A DNA stretch of 39,355 bases from a virus. Its lineage: Duplodnaviria > Caudoviricetes. The first letter of the stretch is position 1, and the number at the start of each line of letters is the position of its first letter. Both the position numbers and the translations under genes were made by a program. Shown here in pieces: positions 7,437 to 29,828 of this stretch. The stretch lies in IMG/VR virus record IMGVR_UViG_3300037310_000255, positions 1 to 39,355 of that record; one strand, given 5' to 3'. The notes under the pieces are model-generated. The model was not told where the DNA came from and ran no database searches. It saw nothing but the letters and a program-made list of their open reading frames with translations.

Positions 7437-10400
7437 GTGCCCGACGGGCTTCGCGACTTTCGCGAGCAATATCCGCAGTACGCTGATCTCGACGACGAGA
7501 CGCTCGCGGCGCGGCTCTATACGCGCTACTACTCGGACCTCGAGCCGCTCGAGTACCGCAAGCGCATGGGCCTCACGGTCCCGGAGCCCGCGCGAGCACC
7601 GACGATCGGCGAGCGGATTGACGCGGGGCTGAGAGCGCCGGAGCGGCGCGTGCGGGGCGGCAGCGAGCTCCTGAACGACGTCGACACCCTCGCGTACCCG
7701 GCGCAAGGCAAGGTCGACGTCGACGCGCTGCAGAGCTTTCTCGACCAGCGTGGCGCGACCAAGCCGCAGCGCGGCGGCAGCTTGCCCGAGCAGCTCTTCG
7801 CCGGCTTCGATGAGTACCGCGCGAACCGGCAGACGGCCTCCGCGCTCGACACGATCCAGACCTCGCAGAACGTCGAGCGGATCCGCCGCGGCGAAGGCCT
7901 CGCACGCCGCTTCGACATCCTCCGTGGCCAGATCCGCCTCGAGCGCGAGCTCGGCAACGTGGATGAAGCCGCTCGGATCGAAGCGCGGCTCGCCGACGAG
8001 GAAGCGAAGCTTAGCGATCCCGACCGGCAGTCGCGCTTCGCGGCGGCGCAAGCGGGACTGCGAAAGACGCTCCAGACGGCGATCGACCGGCGCAAGGAGC
8101 TCTCCGACCGAGCCGCCAGCGTGCCGCTCTCGAGCTCGACGCAGGAGATGGTCGAGGCGGAGGGCTTCAAGGAAGCCTTCGGAGAGTTCACGGACGATCC
8201 GATCCGCATCATTGCCGAGCTCGGCGTGCGATCGGCACCGAACCTCATCGAGATCGTTCCGGCCATGTTCGGCGGCAGCCTGGTCGCGGGGCCGGCCGGT
8301 GCGATCGCCGGCGCCGGCGCGGGCTCCGCGATGGTCGAGTACCGCGCCTCGTTCGTGCAGTCGCTCGAGGAGGCGGGCGTCGACCTGAACAGCGCCGAGT
8401 CGCTGCTCGAGGCCGCGGCGAACAGCGAGCTCATGGAGCAGGCGCATAAGAAGGCCCTAGTTAGGGCCGGGATCATCGGCGCCACGGACGCGGCGACCTT
8501 CGGCGTTGCCGGCCGGGCCCTGACGCCCTTCAAGCGACCGCTCGCGCGTGAGGCGTCGAACCTCGTGGCTCAGATGGGCGTGCAAGCGGCCGGCGGCGCG
8601 GCCGGCGAGGCCGGCGCGCAGCTCGCGACCGAGGGCGAGGTCCACGCCGGCGACGTGCTCGCGGAAGCCGTCGGCGAGGTCGTAACGGCGCCGGGCGAGG
8701 TCGCGACCGCTGCCGCGAGCGGCCTGAGGCGGCCTCAGGTCGCTCAGGAGACGACTACTGGTCAGGCATCCAGTGGGCCGGCCGATGAGACGATCGACGC
8801 CTCCGATGAGACAACCGAGGCCGCTGACGAGACGCGGGCCGATCTGGAAGAGACGGCACCGGCGCCCGAGCTCGGGGATGCCGCCGCGTTCGAAACGGCC
8901 GTCGCCGAGACCCCGCCGGCCGCCGTCGCGGTCCTACGCGCTGACGATCTGCCCGTCGCCGGCAAGGCGCTCGGCGTCGAAGGAGCCGCAGCGATCGAGC
9001 GGGCGGTCTCTCGCGCCGTGGCGGCGAGCGGGCTGCAGGCGTATCGCGTCGACGAGGGCGAGTATCGAGTCGTGGGTCGCACGTCCGAGGAGCTCGATGT
9101 CGCCGTCGAGGCGGTGCGCGAGCACCTTGCTCGGCAAGTCGTCGAGGTCGAGGAGGGCACGCTGAACGGCGTCCAGGTGTCTGCCGGCGTCGGCCCGAGC
9201 GTTGCCGAAGCCGAGGCAGCTCGGCCGGCCGCGCGCGCCGAGCCCGGCGATCGGCTCGTGCTCAACTCGTCGCGGCCGCTCGATATGGAGGCAGGCTCGA
9301 ATTACGTCCCTCTGATCAGTCAGCACGGCGATCTCCCGCTCAACGCGAATCGGGAGTACGTGCTCGGCGATGGACGGACAGTGCGGATCCCGAAAGAGCC
9401 GGTACGTAGGCGCCACGTGATCAAGCTGCTCGAGCGCCATCTTGGGACGCACATCTACCAAGGCCGAGTGAAGGGCAAGAAGACGCGCCTCGGCTTCTAC
9501 CGCCCGGGCCTCGGCGAAGTGCGCATCAGGAACCGCAACGACCTCGAGGTCACGGCGCACGAGGTGGCTCACTTCGTGGACGACAGAAATGTCTGGGTCG
9601 CCAAGCTGTACGAGCAGCACGCGGACGAGCTGAAGCAAGTCAGCTACGACGTGAAGAAGGTCGAGGAGGGGTTCGCCGAGTTCGCACGCCTCTGGCTCAC
9701 GCAGGACAACATGGCCATGAAGGCCGCTCCGGCGTTCTACGACGCGTGGATGGCGGAGCTCGACAAACATCCGCAGCTCGCCGGCGCGCTGCGCGAAGCG
9801 CAGGAGCTCATGCATGCGTGGCACCAGCAAGGGGCGCGGGCGCGGCTGGCTTCGAAGATCGGCCGGGACAAGATCTCGCTGCGGCAGCGGTTCAGCGAAG
9901 TGTTCGATCGCGTGATGGACAAGTTCCTGCAACGCTCGTTTGACGGCCTCCGAGCCTTCAAGGTCATCGAGCGCGCGATCCGCGGCGAGCTCGCCGACGC
10001 CACCCAGTCAGGTTATCTCGCGCTGCGGCTCGCACGCGGCGCGAACGGCGTCGTCGAAGGCATCTTTCATCGCGGCACCGTCAACTGGGATGAGCGCGGG
10101 GATCTCCAATTCACCGGCAAAGGCCTCAAAGACGTGTTCGCACCGGTCGAGGACCGCATGGCGGATATGCAGCTCTACATGGTCGCGCGCCGGGCGCAGG
10201 AGCTCACCGAGCAGGGCCGGGAGAATCTCTTCCGACCGGACGAGATCGCCGCCGGCCTCGCGATCGCCGACGCGCAGCAGGGCGGCGACCCCGTTTTCGC
10301 GCAGGTGTTCGAGGAGTGGCAGGGCTTCAACCAACGCATGCTCGAGTTCGCCGAGAGCTCCGGGCTTCTCTCGGCCGAGAGCCGCGCCGCGATCGTAGAA

Positions 10401-12566
10401 GCCAACAAGCAGTACGTGCCGTTCTCAAGAGTCGTCGACGCGTTCAACGGCGCGCGCACGCGCCGCGGCGGGCTCTTCATGCGCCTGAAGGGCGGGACCA
10501 GCAATATCGAAGACGTATGGGACAGCATCGTGGCTAACACGACGTTCCTCGTGCACGCCGCGATGCAGAACGTTGGCAAGAGAAACTTCTATCGGCTCAT
10601 CGATGGCCAGGCGGGACCGCTAGGCTCTGGTGCCGACAAGAGCGAAATGGCCGCGCTCTACGCCGCGCCGATCTCCCCTGAGTCGGCACCCGTTGCCGTT
10701 GACAAGGATCAGGTCATCAAGGCCGTCGTTGAGAGCATGGGGCTCACGATGCGCTGGTACCGGATGGCGAAGACCGGCGTCGTCACGTCGCCGCAGGAGC
10801 TCGAGACGCTGCAGACGATCGACCGCATCGCCAACGGCATGGGCGACATGTTGACGTTCTTCAAGCCGAAGGACCCGAACGGCAACGTCGACTTTTATCT
10901 CGAGGGCGGCAAGAAGCGTTTCTTCGAGATCGCCGATGCCCTGCTCTGGGAAGCGATCAAGGAGCTGGGCCCGCGCCCGCACAACCTCGCGCTCGCGATC
11001 GCCGGGGGCTTCTCTCACGCGCTCCGCCGCGGCGTCACGCTCGCCCCGCCGTTCGCCTTGGCCAACTTCGTGAGGGACAGTTTTCATGCCTTCACGCTGA
11101 CGAAGGGGCAGATGTTCCCCATCGCGCCGGCGCTGAAGGCGATGTTCGATCGCTTCACGAACGATCCGGACTACTGGCTCTACGTGATCAACGGCGGCGG
11201 CTTCGCGCGGCGATTCGAAGCGGAGGGCCAGCTCGTCAACCCGCCCGGCATCCGGAGCCTCGATCCGCGGAAAGTCGTGTCGGGTGCCAAGGGCGCGTTC
11301 GCCGCCTACGACGCGACGCTGAGCGCGGCGGAATACGCCAACCGGATCGCCGCGTTCCGAGTAGCGCGGAAGAAGGGCGAGTCGCTACGCCAGGCCGCTT
11401 ACCTCGGCCGCGAAGTGTCGACCGACTTCTCGATGCGCGGCTCGTCGGACTTCCTCCGGCTCTTCACCGTCACCGTGCCATTTCTCAATGCTCGACTTCA
11501 AGGTTTATACCGCCTGGCACGCGCCGCCGGCGAGATGCGCGGGAGCCGTCCCCGCGTGAAGTGGCAAGAGGCGCTGTCGTTCGCGGGGAAGGCGCTGATG
11601 GTCGTCACGGTGCCCTCGGTGGCGCTCTACCTCATGAACCGCGACGACGAGCGCTACAAGGAGCTCCCGGACTGGGTCCGCGACCTACACTGGTTCGTGC
11701 CCACCGGCGCCGGCGAGGACGACTACTTGCTCATCCCGAAGCCGTATGAGGTCGGAATGATCTTCGGCTCGATGGTCGAGCGCGCGATGGAATACCTCTA
11801 CGAGAACGACTCCGAGGAGCTCGCCAACGCAATCGGGTGGATCTTCATGGAGGCGTTCTCCTTCAACCCGATGCCGCAGGCGTACGCGCCGATCGACGAG
11901 CTGGGCACGAACAAGGACTTCACGGGCGCGCCGATCATCCCCGAGTATCTGCAGGACCTCGAGCCGGCCCGCCAGTACCACCAGTACACGTCGGACGCCA
12001 TGGTCGCGCTGGGGCGCGCAACCGGCTATTCGCCGATCAAGGCGCAGCATCTCGTCGAGGGCTATCTCGGCACGCTCGGCGCGTGGGCGCTCGCCGCCGC
12101 CGACATGATGCTCTCAGACCTCTCGGGCGGCGGGGAACGGCCCGAGCAGCGCTGGCAGGACTTCCCGCTGATCGCGCGATTTGTTGACGGCGGGCCGCTC
12201 AAGCGAACGCACAGCGAGAGCCACTTTTGGGATCTGCGCGAGCAGACGCGCATCGCCCACGCGACTCTCGCCGACGTCGAGCGACGCAGCCCCGAGATGC
12301 TCCAGCAGTACGTGAGCGACGCGGAGCGTGTGGTGTACGACGCGCTGAACCGGGAGATGGAGCAAAAGGCAGCTCACGTGCGCCAGCTAGATGACGCGAT
12401 GAGCGAGACCCGGTCTCACCCAGAGATGTCTGGCGAAGAGAAGCGCGTGCGGATCGAGGCACTTCAACGGCGGAAGAACGAGGCCATGCGCGCCGTTATG
12501 GTCAAGCTCGACCGCGACGCGGTGCGCGCCATGATCGCTGACGCCGAGCGGATGCGACCGCCGTGA
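7437..12566 (+). CDS. giant internal virion / polyvalent protein (1709 aa): degenerate GGDEF-like domain, HExxH zincin-like motif, C-terminal LPD38-like domain
   Basis: FREQYPQYADLDD N-terminus; AHEVAH...EGFAEF; NFVRD, VPFLNARLQG, YKELPDWVRDLHW...IPKPYEVG, NKDFTGAPIIP. Confidence 0.8.
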   Translation: MPDGLRDFREQYPQYADLDDETLAARLYTRYYSDLEPLEYRKRMGLTVPEPARAPTIGERIDAGLRAPERRVRGGSELLNDVDTLAYPAQGKVDVDALQSFLDQRGATKPQRGGSLPEQLFAGFDEYRANRQTASALDTIQTSQNVERIRRGEGLARRFDILRGQIRLERELGNVDEAARIEARLADEEAKLSDPDRQSRFAAAQAGLRKTLQTAIDRRKELSDRAASVPLSSSTQEMVEAEGFKEAFGEFTDDPIRIIAELGVRSAPNLIEIVPAMFGGSLVAGPAGAIAGAGAGSAMVEYRASFVQSLEEAGVDLNSAESLLEAAANSELMEQAHKKALVRAGIIGATDAATFGVAGRALTPFKRPLAREASNLVAQMGVQAAGGAAGEAGAQLATEGEVHAGDVLAEAVGEVVTAPGEVATAAASGLRRPQVAQETTTGQASSGPADETIDASDETTEAADETRADLEETAPAPELGDAAAFETAVAETPPAAVAVLRADDLPVAGKALGVEGAAAIERAVSRAVAASGLQAYRVDEGEYRVVGRTSEELDVAVEAVREHLARQVVEVEEGTLNGVQVSAGVGPSVAEAEAARPAARAEPGDRLVLNSSRPLDMEAGSNYVPLISQHGDLPLNANREYVLGDGRTVRIPKEPVRRRHVIKLLERHLGTHIYQGRVKGKKTRLGFYRPGLGEVRIRNRNDLEVTAHEVAHFVDDRNVWVAKLYEQHADELKQVSYDVKKVEEGFAEFARLWLTQDNMAMKAAPAFYDAWMAELDKHPQLAGALREAQELMHAWHQQGARARLASKIGRDKISLRQRFSEVFDRVMDKFLQRSFDGLRAFKVIERAIRGELADATQSGYLALRLARGANGVVEGIFHRGTVNWDERGDLQFTGKGLKDVFAPVEDRMADMQLYMVARRAQELTEQGRENLFRPDEIAAGLAIADAQQGGDPVFAQVFEEWQGFNQRMLEFAESSGLLSAESRAAIVEANKQYVPFSRVVDAFNGARTRRGGLFMRLKGGTSNIEDVWDSIVANTTFLVHAAMQNVGKRNFYRLIDGQAGPLGSGADKSEMAALYAAPISPESAPVAVDKDQVIKAVVESMGLTMRWYRMAKTGVVTSPQELETLQTIDRIANGMGDMLTFFKPKDPNGNVDFYLEGGKKRFFEIADALLWEAIKELGPRPHNLALAIAGGFSHALRRGVTLAPPFALANFVRDSFHAFTLTKGQMFPIAPALKAMFDRFTNDPDYWLYVINGGGFARRFEAEGQLVNPPGIRSLDPRKVVSGAKGAFAAYDATLSAAEYANRIAAFRVARKKGESLRQAAYLGREVSTDFSMRGSSDFLRLFTVTVPFLNARLQGLYRLARAAGEMRGSRPRVKWQEALSFAGKALMVVTVPSVALYLMNRDDERYKELPDWVRDLHWFVPTGAGEDDYLLIPKPYEVGMIFGSMVERAMEYLYENDSEELANAIGWIFMEAFSFNPMPQAYAPIDELGTNKDFTGAPIIPEYLQDLEPARQYHQYTSDAMVALGRATGYSPIKAQHLVEGYLGTLGAWALAAADMMLSDLSGGGERPEQRWQDFPLIARFVDGGPLKRTHSESHFWDLREQTRIAHATLADVERRSPEMLQQYVSDAERVVYDALNREMEQKAAHVRQLDDAMSETRSHPEMSGEEKRVRIEALQRRKNEAMRAVMVKLDRDAVRAMIADAERMRPP

Positions 12567-22961: not shown

Positions 22962-23055
22962 CGCCCATAAATTATATATGGGTGAGTCGATTCGCTGGCC
23001 GCCTCGGCGTGTATCATCCGGCGGTCTATCCCGACAACGTTGAGGACCTCGACCC

Positions 23056-23220
23056 ATGGCCAGAAAGCAGCCGAACAGTGGCGGCAAGGGTAGCGGCGGC
23101 TCGCGCGGCGGCAAGACGAACACCGGCCGATCGACCGGTCCGAGAATGTCCGACGAGCGCCGCTCGGACGTGACGACGACGCCGACCCACAAGAACCCGT
23201 ACCCCCGCGGGCTCAGCTGA
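23056..23220 (+). CDS. 54-aa basic Gly-rich peptide, not in the ORF track
   Basis: GAGGA SD; MARKQPNSGGKGSGG...KNPYPRGLS*. Confidence 0.55.
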   Translation: MARKQPNSGGKGSGGSRGGKTNTGRSTGPRMSDERRSDVTTTPTHKNPYPRGLS

Positions 23221-23232
23221 GCCGCCAGACTT

Positions 23233-23754
23233 GTGGGCCGCAACAGCCCACCGACCCAGGAGGACCTGAGGCGCTCGCTGTCATACGACCCTGACAGCGG
23301 GCGCTTCACCTGGTTACGCGGCAAGCTCGCGGGTCAGGAAGCCGGCTACATCCACGGTGCGCCGCCCAAGCGCGGCTATCGAGTCATCGAGTTTCAGGGG
23401 CGCAACTACATGGCGCACCGGCTTGCCATGCTGTGGATGACCGGGCAGTGGCCGGACGAAGTTGATCATCGGAATGGCCGTCGGCACGACAATTGCTGGG
23501 ACAACCTGCGCGCCGCGACGCGCGAAGGTAATGCTCAGAACAAGGCCGTCCAGAGCAACTCCCGCAGCGGCGTCAGAGGCATCAACTGGTACCCCCGGTT
23601 CCAGAAGTGGCGTGCGAGCAGGGCGAGCAATGGAAAACGACAGCACCTTGGGTACTTCGCGACCATCGAGCAGGCGACTGAAGCTCGTCGCGCGGCCGAG
23701 CTCGCCCAGCACGGAGAGTTCGCTGCGTCGCGACGTGATTCCGCCCGTCTATAG
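23233..23754 (+). CDS. HNH homing endonuclease with an AP2-like C-terminal domain
   Basis: YDPDSG.F.W, AHRLA, VDHRNG...DN.W.NLR.AT...N..N, SG..G..W, HLGYF. Confidence 0.9.
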   Translation: MGRNSPPTQEDLRRSLSYDPDSGRFTWLRGKLAGQEAGYIHGAPPKRGYRVIEFQGRNYMAHRLAMLWMTGQWPDEVDHRNGRRHDNCWDNLRAATREGNAQNKAVQSNSRSGVRGINWYPRFQKWRASRASNGKRQHLGYFATIEQATEARRAAELAQHGEFAASRRDSARL

Positions 23755-23775
23755 ACGCGTCACCGCGAACGCGAC

Positions 23776-24480
23776 GTGCGGAAACGGCGTGATCCAAATC
23801 ATCTGCCCGAACTGCCGGACGCTCCACGAGCTCCAGCGGATCCACTGACGTCGCCGCCAGCCGAACCCCCCGGCAAAATCCCCGGCGCCAAGCGGCCCAA
23901 AAAGCAGCGCGCGGCGCGGAAGTCGTCCACTCGGCCGAGAAAATCCCCGCCGGCTCGAGCGCCAGCGGTGGACGAAAAACCGCTCACGGGCAAGCAGGCC
24001 GCGTTCGTGCGCTGGTACACGACGCCCGGCGAGACGCTGTTCAACGGCACGAAGTCGGCCGAGAAGGCAGGCTATCGCGGCAACGAGAACGCCCTCGCCG
24101 TTCAAGCCTATGAAAACCTAAGGAAGCCGCACATCGCGAAGGCGGTGCAGGCGGAGCTGCGCCGGCAGTACAGCGGGGCGGATCTCACCATCGAACGCGT
24201 GCTGCGCGACGTCGAGCTCGTGCGTCAGCTCGCGATCCGAGACGGCCGCTATCAAGCTGCGCTGCGAGCGTCGGACCTTCACGGCAAGTACCTGAAGATG
24301 TGGACGCAGAAGATCGAGCACCTCCACACGATCGAGGACGCTTCGACGGAGGAGCTGCTCGCGCTGCTCGGTCGATTGGTGAAGAACATCGATGGCCTCG
24401 ATCTCGCTCGGCTCCTTGCAGGAGATGGACCCGCGCCAAGCGGCGTACCTGATCCTGCGGGAGCTTCAACAACGCACTGA
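23776..24480 (+). CDS. terS: terminase small subunit; true start may be GTG 23968
   Basis: LTGKQAAFV..Y....NGTKSAEKAGY.....AYENLRKPHI; directly upstream of TerL. Confidence 0.85.
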   Translation: MRKRRDPNHLPELPDAPRAPADPLTSPPAEPPGKIPGAKRPKKQRAARKSSTRPRKSPPARAPAVDEKPLTGKQAAFVRWYTTPGETLFNGTKSAEKAGYRGNENALAVQAYENLRKPHIAKAVQAELRRQYSGADLTIERVLRDVELVRQLAIRDGRYQAALRASDLHGKYLKMWTQKIEHLHTIEDASTEELLALLGRLVKNIDGLDLARLLAGDGPAPSGVPDPAGASTTH

Positions 24481-25129
24481 GAAAGAGGCGCTCGATCGCT
24501 GGTACCCGGACTCGGGGCCGATGCGCCGCGAGCTCTATCGCAAGCACCTCGCGATGTTCCGCGCCGGCCGCGAGCACAACGAGCGCGTGTGCTTGGGCGG
24601 CAACCGCGTCGGCAAGACGCGCACGATCGGCGCGTACGAGACCGCGCTGCACCTGACCGGGCTCTATCCCGTTTGGTGGGAGGGCCGCGTCTTCGAGCGG
24701 CCGATCCTCGCCTGGGCCGCGGGCACGAAGGCGACGAAGGTGCGTGACGTCAATCAGACGTTCTTGCTGGGCAAGCTCACCGTCGACGCCGGCGTCACGA
24801 TGGCGAGCGGCGGGCTCATCCCGCGCAAGCGCATCGTGCGGCTCTCGAGAAAGTCGAGCGTCGCCGACGCCGTCGACCAGGTCGTGATCGCGCACAAGGA
24901 CGGCTACGAGAACGTGCTGACGTTCAAGAGCTACGAGGAAGGCCGCTCGTCGTTCGAGGCCGAGGCCGTCGACTGGATCTGGCTCGACGAGGAGGGTTCG
25001 CGAGCGATCTACGACGAATGCAAGATGCGCCTCCTTACGACGCGGGGCGCGATGCTCTCCACGTTCACGCCGGTCGAGGGCATGACGGAGCTCGTGATCT
25101 CGCTGCTCGAGGGGTCGGACTTTCTCTAG
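24392..25129 (+). CDS. terL: terminase large subunit, N-terminal ATPase half (P22 gp2-like)
   Basis: RRELYRKH, Walker A GGNRVGKT, Walker B WIWLDEE, coupling motif TFTP, then TAG. Confidence 0.9.
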   Translation: MASISLGSLQEMDPRQAAYLILRELQQRTEKEALDRWYPDSGPMRRELYRKHLAMFRAGREHNERVCLGGNRVGKTRTIGAYETALHLTGLYPVWWEGRVFERPILAWAAGTKATKVRDVNQTFLLGKLTVDAGVTMASGGLIPRKRIVRLSRKSSVADAVDQVVIAHKDGYENVLTFKSYEEGRSSFEAEAVDWIWLDEEGSRAIYDECKMRLLTTRGAMLSTFTPVEGMTELVISLLEGSDFL

Positions 25130-25142
25130 CCGGGAGGCATGC

Positions 25143-25445
25143 GTGAACGACGAGCAAATCGAATCGGAGATCCAGACCAAGGGCCTCAACGCGCCGCGCG
25201 TCACGCCGGCGATGATCGAGGACGCGATCCGCGGCGAGGAGTACTACGTCTTCGCGGGCACCACGCTCACGGTGTGCTGCCTCACGCTGCGCAACGGCTT
25301 CACGGTGACCGGCGAGAGTGCCGCGGCGAGTCCGGAGAACTTCGACGCGGAGCTCGGCCGCAAGATCGCGCGCGAGCACGCCAAGCAAAAGATCTGGGCA
25401 CTCGAGGGCTACCTCCTCAAGCAATGGCTATTCGAGAAGCAGTGA
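25143..25445 (+). CDS. N4 Gp49 / Sf6 gp66 family protein
   Basis: APRVTP..IE..I, LTVCCLTLRNGFTVTGESA.ASPENFDAELGRKIA...A...IW.LEGY.L. Confidence 0.85.
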   Translation: MNDEQIESEIQTKGLNAPRVTPAMIEDAIRGEEYYVFAGTTLTVCCLTLRNGFTVTGESAAASPENFDAELGRKIAREHAKQKIWALEGYLLKQWLFEKQ

Positions 25446-25633
25446 CCCGCCGCACCCGCCGCCCGCGGCACTGCTCGGTCGAGACGTGCCGGACCAAACT
25501 CACGCGAGAGGAGCTGCTCTACAACGATGGCCGATGTAACGCGTGCATCCGAGTCGCTCTCGAGCGAAGTGCCGGGGGGGCCGATCATCCAGCGCATGGC
25601 CGAATACGCCCAGGAGCACCCCGAGGCGACTGA
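25442..25633 (+). CDS. small Cys-rich hypothetical protein
   Basis: GTGA coupling; CSVETC...GRCNAC. Confidence 0.4.
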   Translation: MTRRTRRPRHCSVETCRTKLTREELLYNDGRCNACIRVALERSAGGADHPAHGRIRPGAPRGD

Positions 25634-25883
25634 GTACTCGATCGTCGACGAGGCCGAAGCGCAGGCGTTGCTGCTCGCGATCGCGGAGCAGGTGCGTGTG
25701 ATGCTCGACGTCGGCGGCTTTCGCGGCACGAAGCGCCACGCCCTGCAGACCGTCAACCACGCGTATCGCCGCGCCGTGCAAGAAGGCTGCGCGCTCAAGT
25801 ACATAGCCGGCCTCACGGCCGAGGAGGAGCTCGAGGTGTTCGGACTCAAGATCGTCGTGCCGGCCATCGTGGTGCACCAATGA
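25527..25883 (+). CDS. hypothetical protein; start uncertain (25527, 25569 or 25596)
   Basis: Coding-like codon usage; ATGA coupling to the next gene. Confidence 0.6.
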   Translation: MADVTRASESLSSEVPGGPIIQRMAEYAQEHPEATEYSIVDEAEAQALLLAIAEQVRVMLDVGGFRGTKRHALQTVNHAYRRAVQEGCALKYIAGLTAEEELEVFGLKIVVPAIVVHQ

Positions 25884-26326
25884 GCGGCGCGGACCGGATG
25901 CGCGAGATCGCGATGGCGATCTGCGCCTCGCGGCTCGACAACGGCGTGAGCGCCGAGGACTTCACGGAGCGGGTCGAGCAGCTGATCGAGTGCGCGCGCG
26001 ACGAGGGCAAGCAGCTCGGGCGGCTTGCGGGCTCGATCGAGCGGATCGGCAGGCGAGACGAACCGGAGCCGGCGGCGGGCACCGGCGACGAGCCGTCAAG
26101 CAGCACCGAATCCGGTGCGGATCTGCACCCTGGCGATGCAAGATCGGTCCCGGCCGGTCGCCGCCGCTTGAGCTACGACGACAAGACGCGCATGCGCGAG
26201 CGGTACGCGGTAGCGATGGAGGGCCGTCAACGCGCACCGAACGGCTTCCTCGAGAGGATGGCCAGCGAGTACGGCGTGAGCGTCGCCACGGTCAAGGAGA
26301 CGCTTTACCGCGGTGACGGCACGTGA
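25880..26326 (+). CDS. hypothetical protein with a C-terminal HTH
   Basis: LERMASEYGVSVATVKETL. Confidence 0.65.
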   Translation: MSGADRMREIAMAICASRLDNGVSAEDFTERVEQLIECARDEGKQLGRLAGSIERIGRRDEPEPAAGTGDEPSSSTESGADLHPGDARSVPAGRRRLSYDDKTRMRERYAVAMEGRQRAPNGFLERMASEYGVSVATVKETLYRGDGT

Positions 26327-26590
26327 ACGGCAAGGTCGTGCCGATCAAGCGCGGGGCGACGTCGCCGAAGGCGTTCTGCGCGATGCTCTACGAGCAGGCC
26401 GACAAGATCGAGCACATCGCGATCGTCGTTCAGTGGAAGGAAGACGCAAAAGGGGAAGCCGACGAACCTAACCAACGTCGCCGCGACGACGATGCCGATC
26501 TGCGATCTCGTGTGGCTCAAGCACGTGTTCGACGCGGACATTCTCAGCGAACAGGAGCGAGAGCCGCGCCGGCCGGACGACGCGGCGTAA
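26323..26590 (+). pseudogene. hypothetical gene with an apparent +1 frameshift near 26470
   Basis: MNGKVVPIKR...GEADEP continues in the +1 frame as TNVAATTMPICDLVWLKHVFD...DDAA, ending TAA four bases before the TerL-C start. Confidence 0.5.
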
Positions 26591-26594
26591 GCTC

Positions 26595-27332
26595 GTGTCG
26601 AAGTACCTCGACATGATTGCCTGGGAGGACTGCCCGCACTTGCAGCCGCCCAACATCCCGAAAGAGGAGCTCGACCAGCTCGAGCGCGACATGCTGCCGC
26701 ACCAGCGCAGCGCGCGGCGCACGGGCCGGCCTGCGCTCGGCGCCGGCGCCGTCTATCCGATCGACGAGGAGTCGATCTTCGTCGACCCGTTCCGGATCCC
26801 CGAGCACTGGCCGCGCGGTTACGCGCTCGACGTCGGCTGGCGTCGCACGGCCGCGCTCTGGGGCGCGTACGACGAGGACGCCGATCGCTACTACCTCACG
26901 CACGAGTACTACGAGAGCGAGCAACAGCCGATCGTGCACGCGGCCGCGATCAAGGCAGTCGGTGAGTGGATGACCGGCGCGATCGACCCGGCCGCGGATA
27001 ACAGCAACCAACGCGACGGGTCGAAGCTGAAAAGCGAGTACGATGAGCTCGGGCTGAACCTCGTGTTCGCGAACAACGCGGTCGCGGCGGGCATACACCA
27101 CGTGCTGACGCTCTATCAGTCCGGGCGCCTGAAGGTGTTCAAAAGTTGCGTTAGCTTCCGAAAGGAGTTCAGACTCTACCGCCGCCACAAGGAAGGGACG
27201 CCCAAAGCCGGCAAGATCGTCAAAGAGAACGATCACTTGATGGACTGCAAGCGGTACCTGCTCAACACGAGCGGCGTCTTCGCCACCCCACCGATCCAGA
27301 AGGCGCGACGAGCTGCACGTGGAGAGTGGTAG
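26595..27332 (+). CDS. terL: terminase large subunit, C-terminal RNase H-like nuclease half
   Basis: WEDCPHL, PHQRSAR..G.P.LG.G.VYP, ALDVGW, AIDPA, Y.R...GKIVKENDHLMDC.RY. Confidence 0.9.
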   Translation: MSKYLDMIAWEDCPHLQPPNIPKEELDQLERDMLPHQRSARRTGRPALGAGAVYPIDEESIFVDPFRIPEHWPRGYALDVGWRRTAALWGAYDEDADRYYLTHEYYESEQQPIVHAAAIKAVGEWMTGAIDPAADNSNQRDGSKLKSEYDELGLNLVFANNAVAAGIHHVLTLYQSGRLKVFKSCVSFRKEFRLYRRHKEGTPKAGKIVKENDHLMDCKRYLLNTSGVFATPPIQKARRAARGEW

Positions 27333-27335
27333 CGG

Positions 27336-29828
27336 ATGCCGACGAAGGCAAACGAAAAGCCCGATCACGCGATCACGGTCGAGGCGAGCGACGCCAACGA
27401 CGACCCGCTGAAGCCGCTCCGCGAGCGCTTTCAGGTCCATCAGGGCTTTTGGTCGCAGATCCACACCGAGGCGCGCGACGACGATAACTTCGTCGCCGGC
27501 GACCAGTGGCCGGCGCGGATCAAAGCGGACCGCGAGGAAGCCGGCCGCCCCGTCCTGACGTACAACCTCTTCCCGTCGTTCTGCCGGCAGATCCGCAACA
27601 AGGTTCGCCAGGAGCGTCCGCAGATCAAGATCCGGCCGGTCGAGCAGGACCGCCACCTGCCGCCGTCGATCAAGAACCTGCAGGGCACGAAGGACTACAG
27701 CCTCGCGGACGTGTTCAGCGGGATCATCCGCAACATCGAGCACGTAAGCCGCGCCGACCAGGCGTACGACACCTCGATCACGCACGCCGTCGATCACGGC
27801 TTCGGCTTCTTCTACGTCGAAAACACGTGGTCGAAGCACGACCCGTTCGTGCAGGAGCTCCTGATCCGGCGCGTGAAGGACAGCTACTCGGTGACGCTCG
27901 ACCCGAGCGCCCAGGAAGCCGACTACAGCGACGCGCAGGACGGCTTCCTGTTCACGTCGGTGAACCGCGCCACGTTCGAGGAGAAATACCCGGACGCCAA
28001 GGCGGGGAGCTTCGACGGCGGCGTGTCGTTCGATGGCTGGTGGGATGCCGAGAGCGTCCGCGTGGCGCAGTACTACCGCATCGAGTACCGCGACGACGAG
28101 GCGCTGCTCCTCTCGAACGGCAAGGTCGTCTACCTCTCCGACGTGAAGGACGTGCTCGACGAGCTCGAGCTCGAGCAAGGCGTCCACGTGCTCGTGAGCG
28201 GCGGCAAGGAGATGCGCCGCAAGGTGAAGCGGCCCATCTGCACGTGGCGCAAGATCACCGGCTGCGAAGTGCTCGAGGGCCCGCTCGATCTCCCGTTCGA
28301 GCACGTGCCGATCTTCGCGGTGCTGGGCGATGAGCAGCTCGTCGACGGCCAGGTGCACTACATCTCGGCGATCCGCGACGCCAAGGACGCTCAGCGCAGC
28401 TACAACTACTGGCGCACGGCCGCGGCGGAGACAGTGGCGCTCGCGCCGCGCGCGCCGTACATCGGCACGGAAAAGCAGTTCGCCGGGCACGAGCACCTCT
28501 ACGAGACGGCGAACTCCGAGAACCACCCGTACCTGACGTACAACCACGTCGACGGCGTGCCGCCGCCGCAGCGGCAGTTCCCGGCCGGGATCAGCGCCGG
28601 CGAGCTCGCGCTCGCGACGCAGGACGCGCGCGACATGCAGACGATGATCGGGCTGCACGACGCGTCGCTTGGCCGCGAGAGCAACGAGAAGTCCGGGCGC
28701 GCGATCGAACGCCGGCAGGCTCAAGGGCTCACGTCGACGTTCCAGTTCCCGGACAACCTCGGCCGCGCGCAGGAACACATGGCGCGCGTGCTGATCCATG
28801 CGATCCCGCGGATCTACGACACGCGCCGCGTGATGCGCATTCGGCTGCCGGACGACACCGAGGACTTCGTCGAGATCAACACGGTCGTCGAGGATCAGGA
28901 CCGGCCGGGCCACCGCGTGCTGATCCACGATCTCGGCGTCGGGCGCTACGACGTCGTGATGGAGCCCGGCATCGACTACGCGACGCAGATGCATGAGGCG
29001 CGCGACACGCAGCTCGAGATCTTGAAGGTCATCGGGCCCGAGAAAGCCGGCCAGATCGTGCACCTCGTCGTCGAGAACATCGGGGGACCTGGCGCCGACA
29101 AGATCGCCCGCGTGCTGCGCAAGCTCCTGCCCGACGAGCTCAAGAGCGACGAGGAGAAACGCGCGGATCTCCCGGCCGGCATCGTCATGGGCCCAAAAGG
29201 GCAGCCGATCGTCGAGGAGACGGGCGAGCCGTGGCAGCCGCCGCTGACACCGGCGCAGCAGCTCCTGCAGCAGCAGCAGAAGGTCGACGAGCTCAAGGCC
29301 CAGGCCGAGATCGCGACCGCTCAGAGCAGACAGAAAGACGCCGACGCGCGCGTGGCGATCGCGAACGCCAAGCTCGAGGAGGCCAAGCTCAAGCTCGCCG
29401 AGATGCAACGCGGGCCCGTCGGCGAGCAGGCCCGCGACGACGTGCAGTTCCTCAAAGACGTCGAGGAGCTCGTGCGGCGCGTGATGGAGGAGCACGAGAA
29501 GAACCCGAAGGCGCACGGCGACGCGACCGCCGCGGCCGTCACCGAGTCGGCCGTCGAGGTGCTCGAGCGCGTCAAGCGCTACGTGGACTCGCACGTCGAG
29601 CCGATCGGCAAGAAGGTCGAGACCGCCGAGCAGGAGCGCAAGCTCGAGAAGGCGACACAGCGTGCCGCCGGCAAGGTCGATCGGAAGGACGTCGACGACG
29701 AGCCGAAGGCGCCGAACGTCGTGAAGTTCGTGTACGATGCCGGCGAGCTCGTCGGCGCGCAGATCGACGGGAGCAAGCTGATCAAGATCGAGCGGGGCCG
29801 GGCTCGCGCGCGCAGGGCGCATGAGTAG
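27336..29828 (+). CDS. portal protein (P22 gp1-like) with a long C-terminal helical extension
   Basis: D..FVAGDQW, RPVLTYN, DA.DAQR.YNYW, SG.AI.RRQ.QG, F.DNL, G.YDV. Confidence 0.92.
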   Translation: MPTKANEKPDHAITVEASDANDDPLKPLRERFQVHQGFWSQIHTEARDDDNFVAGDQWPARIKADREEAGRPVLTYNLFPSFCRQIRNKVRQERPQIKIRPVEQDRHLPPSIKNLQGTKDYSLADVFSGIIRNIEHVSRADQAYDTSITHAVDHGFGFFYVENTWSKHDPFVQELLIRRVKDSYSVTLDPSAQEADYSDAQDGFLFTSVNRATFEEKYPDAKAGSFDGGVSFDGWWDAESVRVAQYYRIEYRDDEALLLSNGKVVYLSDVKDVLDELELEQGVHVLVSGGKEMRRKVKRPICTWRKITGCEVLEGPLDLPFEHVPIFAVLGDEQLVDGQVHYISAIRDAKDAQRSYNYWRTAAAETVALAPRAPYIGTEKQFAGHEHLYETANSENHPYLTYNHVDGVPPPQRQFPAGISAGELALATQDARDMQTMIGLHDASLGRESNEKSGRAIERRQAQGLTSTFQFPDNLGRAQEHMARVLIHAIPRIYDTRRVMRIRLPDDTEDFVEINTVVEDQDRPGHRVLIHDLGVGRYDVVMEPGIDYATQMHEARDTQLEILKVIGPEKAGQIVHLVVENIGGPGADKIARVLRKLLPDELKSDEEKRADLPAGIVMGPKGQPIVEETGEPWQPPLTPAQQLLQQQQKVDELKAQAEIATAQSRQKDADARVAIANAKLEEAKLKLAEMQRGPVGEQARDDVQFLKDVEELVRRVMEEHEKNPKAHGDATAAAVTESAVEVLERVKRYVDSHVEPIGKKVETAEQERKLEKATQRAAGKVDRKDVDDEPKAPNVVKFVYDAGELVGAQIDGSKLIKIERGRARARRAHE

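Follow-up and report, generated by a model that had tools for sequence, protein, structure and literature searches.

Large terminases are treated as one chain, in which the lid transmits force from the ATP site. Phage P22 gp2 is, as described in PMC11728703, a single 499-residue chain with an ATPase fold that spans residues 38–284. A large terminase encoded by two genes has been described in viable cluster AY Arthrobacter phages (BillyTP genes 2 and 3; BlueShadow) (PMC11920828, PMC12820723), and in Aeromonas phage Aeh1 mobE splits the essential enzyme NrdA into NrdA-a and NrdA-b, two polypeptides that reassemble without splicing (PMC3045599). In the terminase of Streptomyces phage Hau3, 10-nucleotide (nt) non-coding blocks follow UUA at highly conserved junctions (PMC10732093). 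Here we describe IMGVR_UViG_3300037310_000255, the whole 39,355-base record of an uncultured freshwater virus with an estimated completeness of 100% (from here on, the window), in which a P22 gp2-type large terminase is divided between two genes, terL-1 and terL-2. We conclude that this is very probably a two-chain large terminase joined by strand complementation: two genes, and likely two proteins, that are predicted to reassemble through a donated β-strand.

In place of the single polypeptide of a P22 gp2-type large terminase, the window carries two open reading frames (ORFs) in different frames, with 1465 nt from the stop of the first to the start of the second:

24425..25129, + strand: terL-1, 234 residues, ASCE ATPase core, Terminase_6N; frame open from 24392
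26595..27332, + strand: terL-2, 245 residues, Terminase_6C; GTG start, a conserved start codon

The first ORF (24392–25129) ends at TAG 25127–25129, and ATG 24425 is its likely start, because the resulting 234 residues are the commonest length among homologs. An earlier note on this sequence had placed the stop and the GTG 26595 restart exactly here, with catalytic motifs kept on both sides, and the ORFs and the Pfam matches (that to Terminase_6N being above the cut-off) bear this out. The product of terL-1 contains Walker A (GGNRVGKT), Walker B (WLDEE) and T-x-T-P (TFTP) as well as the helix after T-x-T-P; that of terL-2 contains the last ATPase strand (KYLDMI), the lid helices, the linker and an RNase H-like nuclease with D79 and D217. 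Of the features of a P22 gp2-type enzyme, the Walker A, Walker B and coupling motif of an ASCE ATPase and the RNase H-like nuclease are present, and the pair lies between the small terminase gene (terS) and a P22-type portal gene. P22-like portal, scaffold, coat and head-closure genes are also found in the record.

The cut falls inside the ATPase fold. The first half aligns to residues 40–244 of P22 gp2 (AAF75044) with 30% identity and the second to residues 266–466 with 33% identity, with Trp10 of terL-2 pairing with P22 Tyr258; since the first alignment ends at 244 and Trp10 sits at Tyr258, the break corresponds to P22 gp2 loop 245–250. This is approximately 35–40 residues inside the ATPase fold and not at the ATPase/nuclease linker. 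The match to the solved P22 nuclease (4dkw, E 2e-21) begins only at terL-2 residue 48, which, given the extent of the P22 ATPase fold, assigns the last ATPase strand, the lid helices, the linker and the nuclease to chain 2. The two halves had been called ‘ATPase and nuclease genes’ in the earlier note: that there are two genes holds, and the wording of the domain boundary is imprecise, because the cut lies within the ATPase. The nuclease fold of terL-2 superimposes on 4dkw with a template-modelling (TM) score of 0.80 by target length, D79 and D217 align with 4dkw, and D79, D213 and D217 are invariant in 93 aligned sequences. A PDB sequence search with the first half gave no match and a fold search was required, by which terL-1 resembles the ATPases of the P74-26 and D6E large terminases. 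In 12 of 13 rows from the window’s clade the lid is longer than that of P22 gp2 by 5 residues.

The split is real and conserved throughout the lineage. Among the first-half homologs we considered the best 120 of 1226 near-length matches, which are 60–88% identical. Every one of these 120 has Walker A and ends 22–49 residues past T-x-T-P (exactly 22 in 95), and 118 have Walker B; each of the two nuclease motifs is found in 119 of the 120 second-half homologs listed. One-chain relatives are more distant: the top identity is 52% among the best 120 of 1450 longer proteins. The top longer match, P0121, is actually a first half with the same end point and an insertion of about 210 residues just before Walker A, which by our own reading of the sequence appears intein-like.

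Both halves also appear to be under purifying selection. In two close pairs from the clade the ratio of non-synonymous to synonymous substitution rates (dN/dS) is 0.105 and 0.132 for the first half and 0.036 and 0.081 for the second, and across the 19 close split pairs listed it is at most 0.24 in either half wherever it could be computed. That the window holds a misassembled gene, or a decaying copy of a terminase that relatives keep intact, is a reading we regard as refuted. On its side are a switch of frame in one of the ORFs between the halves (described below) and the lack of a listed contig piece spanning the whole stretch. However, positions 24640–28500 are matched with 0 differences and 0 gaps by a Logan contig from the likely source run, and a contig from a second study covers 24635–25350, across the terL-1 stop, without differences; this check used contigs, not reads, and none of the listed second-study pieces bridges the terL-2 start. 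Moreover, the same breakpoint recurs in all 120 listed homologs, the motifs are intact, dN/dS is far below 1, and the record carries one match each to Terminase_6N and Terminase_6C, with no second terminase copy.

The second gene has a start codon of its own. Of 135 split loci, 107 have an ATG, GTG or TTG at 9 or 14 codons ahead of the lid Trp; of 107 fused loci, 6 do. Within the clade the start codon varies between ATG, GTG, TTG and CTG, with 10 of 17 loci using a codon other than ATG. Such variation is what a start codon would be expected to show. An upstream ORF of at least 30 residues ends within –12 to +20 nt of the terL-2 start in 17 of 17 clade loci; the same holds for 13% of random positions and for 39 of the 62 gapped loci outside the clade. 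A separate split subclade (L046, L052, L054, L058, L060, L064, L088 and L150; 8 of the 135 de-duplicated split loci) apparently starts its second gene at ATT; a GAGG-like element usually lies just ahead of this codon, and a predicted hairpin often covers both element and start. In L054 an in-frame TAG directly precedes the ATT.

Structure prediction suggests how the two chains could make one subunit. Folded alone, terL-2 has a predicted local distance difference test score (pLDDT) of 49 over residues 1–10. Modelled together, the two chains reach a complex score of 0.89 (best of three controls, 0.01), a level attained by 116 of 157 complexes of solved structure and by 2 of 215 mismatched pairs; at least 92% of contacts are common to the runs, and the partner pLDDT is at least 81. 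The best contacts are between residues 53–57 of chain 1, which form the strand that runs into Walker A, and residues 3–8 of chain 2. Their register looks like that of a parallel pair, and chain 2 residues 40–49 are also part of the modelled interface. That two chains form one active site is a prediction of this model. In the mechanism that we propose, ribosomes that finish the gene next to the terL-2 start would re-initiate there, and the first eight residues of chain 2 are predicted to pair as a β-strand with the Walker A strand of chain 1, which would complete the ATPase fold and put the lid over the ATP site. A roughly 1:1 heterodimer would then act as a normal motor subunit at the portal.

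Several points weigh against this reading. Synonymous divergence between the window and its relatives is near or at saturation (dS from 0.8 to infinite), and the selection figures come from pairs of relatives. Translation into two chains is inferred from sequence; no Shine–Dalgarno match of at least three letters is present at the second start in 9 of 17 clade loci, and re-initiation is what we infer from this and from the ORF ending beside the start. The pass of the complex model is expected for split-gene halves and may reflect solved one-chain terminases: such halves tend to pass through their likeness to these, and the model therefore shows fit, not binding. Of 409 GenBank phage records, 111 distinct ones were listed; among these the uncultured MW202785 alone is split at the P22-type site, and none is a cultured phage with such a split. 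Lastly, CTC is in the window both the last sense codon of terL-1 and the codon before the GTG of terL-2, and in each place it forms part of an 8-bp direct repeat.

The herpesvirus UL15 terminase is spliced by host machinery, and by analogy the earlier note had offered, next to a two-chain packaging motor, a mechanism of rejoining that had escaped recognition. On such a reading one polypeptide would be restored across the gap by RNA splicing, ribosome bypass or protein joining. The matching CTC codons and the 8-bp repeat would suit it, and bypassing has been proposed for the Hau3 terminase (PMC10732093). We nevertheless consider it very improbable. Take-off and landing codons match in just 3 of 80 gapped loci, the window among them, and the gaps fall into every frame and can be anything from an overlap to 6153 nt long. 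Translational bypass of the kind known from T4 gene 60 and proposed for Hau3 concerns short non-coding gaps with matched codons; the gaps here are long and coding. At the gathering score Rfam yields no match in the window and 12 further loci (one weak, unrelated junction match has E 1.8), neither an intron core nor conserved splice junctions of a group I or II intron are found, and the junction codons show unremarkable synonymous divergence (0.57 and 0.45 against a gene range of 0.38–0.60). Nor do the two ends carry intein halves: there is no intein-like extension on either, with 95 of 120 first halves ending 22 residues past T-x-T-P and second halves beginning at the strand. The start codons are selected only in split loci, and the gap holds conserved protein genes. 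The CTC match and its repeat, considered as a junction signal, were rejected as chance, as relatives show unrelated repeats of 4–8 bp. Read-through of the stop was likewise rejected, with the halves in different frames and relatives using all three stops. The rejoining mechanism and the UL15 analogy thus find no support in Rfam, junction divergence, repeats, codon matches or gap lengths, and the view that the locus lacks a recognisable intron core or intein stands. Good support for the two-chain motor comes from the conserved start codon, the selection on the halves, the presence of the split throughout the clade and the model of the complex.

Might the split itself serve to unbalance the chains? 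In such a scheme the lid–nuclease chain would be made in smaller amounts, or exchanged on the ring, so that assembly switches between cutting and pumping. Non-ATG starts are frequent (10 of 17 are GTG, TTG or CTG), most without a strong Shine–Dalgarno match, and the other subclade uses an ATT start that a predicted hairpin often covers; for D6E, suppression of ATPase turnover by the nuclease domain has been reported (PMC5727402). On the other hand, chain 1 alone should be inactive, because chain 2 holds a core ATPase strand and the lid; coupled re-initiation accounts for weak starts without regulation; and sister pairs that differ in split state fit near-neutral change. We therefore judge this scheme improbable, and a two-chain motor of roughly equal parts remains the reading we prefer.

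To place the split among relatives, we compiled 424 terminase loci including the window, of which 197 are split and 187 fused, 39 have one half only and one lacks cover of the junction. After dropping 30 of the 384 split or fused loci that had no usable pair of halves, de-duplication left 242 (135 split and 107 fused). Split loci are thus common here, but the sample was retrieved by split-derived queries, so that 135 of 242 is not a family-wide frequency; a published description, which the earlier note had allowed would remove the novelty, was not found in the open-access literature covered. Related genomes share the breakpoint and have variable inserts, with gaps of 171 to 3300 nt within the clade. 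Split P22-type terminases are also found in genomes of cultured bacteria recorded as named strains (L302, L303, L304, L305, L289, L293, L295, L325, L330, L347 and L280), with gaps ranging from overlap to 3979 nt; the halves overlap in Sphingomonas melonis (L302) and are 1178 nt apart in Azospirillum agricola (L303) and 1813 nt apart in Aminobacter aganoensis (L304). Bryobacterales assemblies (L328, L329, L336–L338, L340 and L342) have near-identical split loci, some of them more than one. KR296687, a P22 gp2 in two pieces, was not counted because it is broken in the nuclease, at another place.

The window’s clade is all split (support 100). Over the 242-row tree the split label changes 29 times, as compared to a mean of 79 when shuffled, and split and fused forms are interspersed, 11 disjoint clades with good support containing both; even close sister pairs can differ in split state. 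A single split clade is rejected on a 62-row subset by the approximately unbiased test (p-AU 3e-6), a value that is optimistic because the rows were chosen after seeing the 242-row tree. The distances of the two halves correlate (rho 0.89), although linkage alone can produce such a correlation. Repeated fission, re-fusion and gene exchange would fit this unrooted tree alike. Loop 245–250 would be best pictured as a tolerant site, cut or re-fused many times; after the cut the gap would have gathered genes, two of which became fixed in the window’s clade. The features around and between the two halves are as follows:

23233–23754: HNH-AP2 endonuclease gene, directly upstream of terS
23776..24480, + strand: terminase small subunit (terS), Pfam Terminase_2 (E 1e-11), phrog_51; overlaps the likely terL-1 start
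25143..25445, + strand: Gp49/Gp66-family gene, Pfam PF13876 (E 2.5e-31); variable cargo
25442..25633, + strand: small CxxC...N-x-G-x-CxxC protein; conserved gap core, 25 of 25 distinct clade loci
25527..25883, + strand: 118-residue protein of no known family; conserved gap core, 22 of 25 clade loci
25880..26326, + strand: 148-residue orphan ORF with no Pfam or PHROG match, GC content at third codon positions (GC3) 0.87; variable cargo
26323..26616, + strand: orphan ORF with a shift of codon bias into the +1 frame, by GC3 analysis
27336..29828, + strand: P22-like portal protein, PF16510 (E 6e-153)

The gap had been said to hold five unrelated ORFs. This is wrong for two of the five, the CxxC gene and the 118-residue gene, which are conserved across the clade; the other three are variable cargo. 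The CxxC gene stands between the halves in 21 of 21 clade loci that have both halves on the contig. Neither it nor the 118-residue gene was found in any of 399 other terL loci, and all 17 matches of a DNA-pattern search of IMG/VR for the CxxC motif adjoin these terminase halves; pattern and profile were built from the window’s clade and could miss distant relatives elsewhere. The CxxC protein is likely Zn-binding, as judged by its motif; it has no PHROG match and all its Atlas matches are under 0.9. The 118-residue family comprises 49 representatives at 50% identity; its alignment is highly divergent, and searches of Pfam, PDB and Atlas gave no consistent or informative match. The two genes overlap by approximately 100 nt, possibly through overlapping starts or a programmed frameshift fusion; in the clade loci that we read, the ATG or GTG of the 118-residue gene lies, in a different frame, within the codons around the N-x-G motif of the CxxC gene.

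As for the cargo, the earlier note rightly named a Gp49/66-family gene, which is found in the window only among 18 clade loci compared. Its helix-turn-helix label for ORF 25880–26326 could not be verified, this ORF having neither a Pfam or PHROG match nor a homolog among the loci. In the gaps of L001, L002, L004, L006, L035 and L196 a recurring cargo gene with a PTVPHTGT-like beginning follows the conserved core. The last ORF of the gap (26323–26616) has GC3 of 0.93, and later 0.44 in frame as compared to 0.89 in the +1 frame. The switch occurs near an A4G4 run at about 26449, and the +1 frame (26450–26590) stops at TAA 26588–26590, 4 nt before the terL-2 start; the ORF is identical in the source-run contig, and it may be a frameshifted gene, a gene with a programmed shift, or the site of a separate 32-residue ORF.

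The CxxC and 118-residue genes may be old passengers or packaging helpers. One could extend the latter idea to a four-part motor, in which an ATPase-core chain and a strand–lid–nuclease chain work with the two small proteins as assembly or switching factors, and in which the two-chain design sets cutting against pumping by subunit supply. We put this forward as a doubtful but conceivable extension; if true, it would be a terminase architecture not described before. Elsewhere, a scan of 23000–27600, of a kind that is informative only for a known host, detected no promoter-like site and no plus-strand terminator, and a locus scan using the portal as query found no relative. A 1709-residue ORF at 7437–12566, among the virion genes, matches large PHROGs of unknown function, one of them annotated as DNA methyltransferase.

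A natural cut between the ATPase core and the last strand plus lid, maintained by selection and recurring within a large environmental family, suggests that the covalent link is dispensable. These loci offer ready-made two-part motors with which to ask which part bears the force, what number of nucleases a ring requires and what switches cutting, and the fixed two-gene core of the clade supplies candidates for new packaging factors. There is a practical side too: annotations list the halves as fragments or ‘hypothetical’, and phylogenies and completeness calls that are based on the terminase can be biased as a result.

Two-gene terminases are already published for cluster AY, and the P22-type cut within the ATPase is found in none of the open-access literature covered, PMC7824862, PMC7156551, PMC6070908, PMC7617512, PMC12210895, PMC11946847 and PMC11476376 included. 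The window shares with cluster AY the division into two ORFs, and it differs in that the genes are not consecutive and the cut is not at the linker: the BillyTP terminase consists of 359 and 198 residues encoded by consecutive overlapping genes, whereas here five ORFs lie between, and its second gene matches Pfam TerL_nuclease, whereas terL-2 matches Terminase_6C. Judged by its motifs, the second BillyTP gene begins some 13 residues ahead of the first catalytic Asp, which places that cut after the lid, at the domain linker. The nrdA locus of Aeh1 has an endonuclease in its gap and new interaction tails on its products; here the gap holds no endonuclease, the HNH gene being upstream of terS instead, and the halves have no added tails. 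In Hau3 the terminase frame is likewise interrupted, but the gap of the present clade is 171–3300 nt long and filled with genes, its loop is variable and its restart codon selected. With P22 itself the order terS, terL, P22-type portal is the same and so are the motifs, and the difference is that gp2 is uncut in P22 and cut here at loop 245–250.

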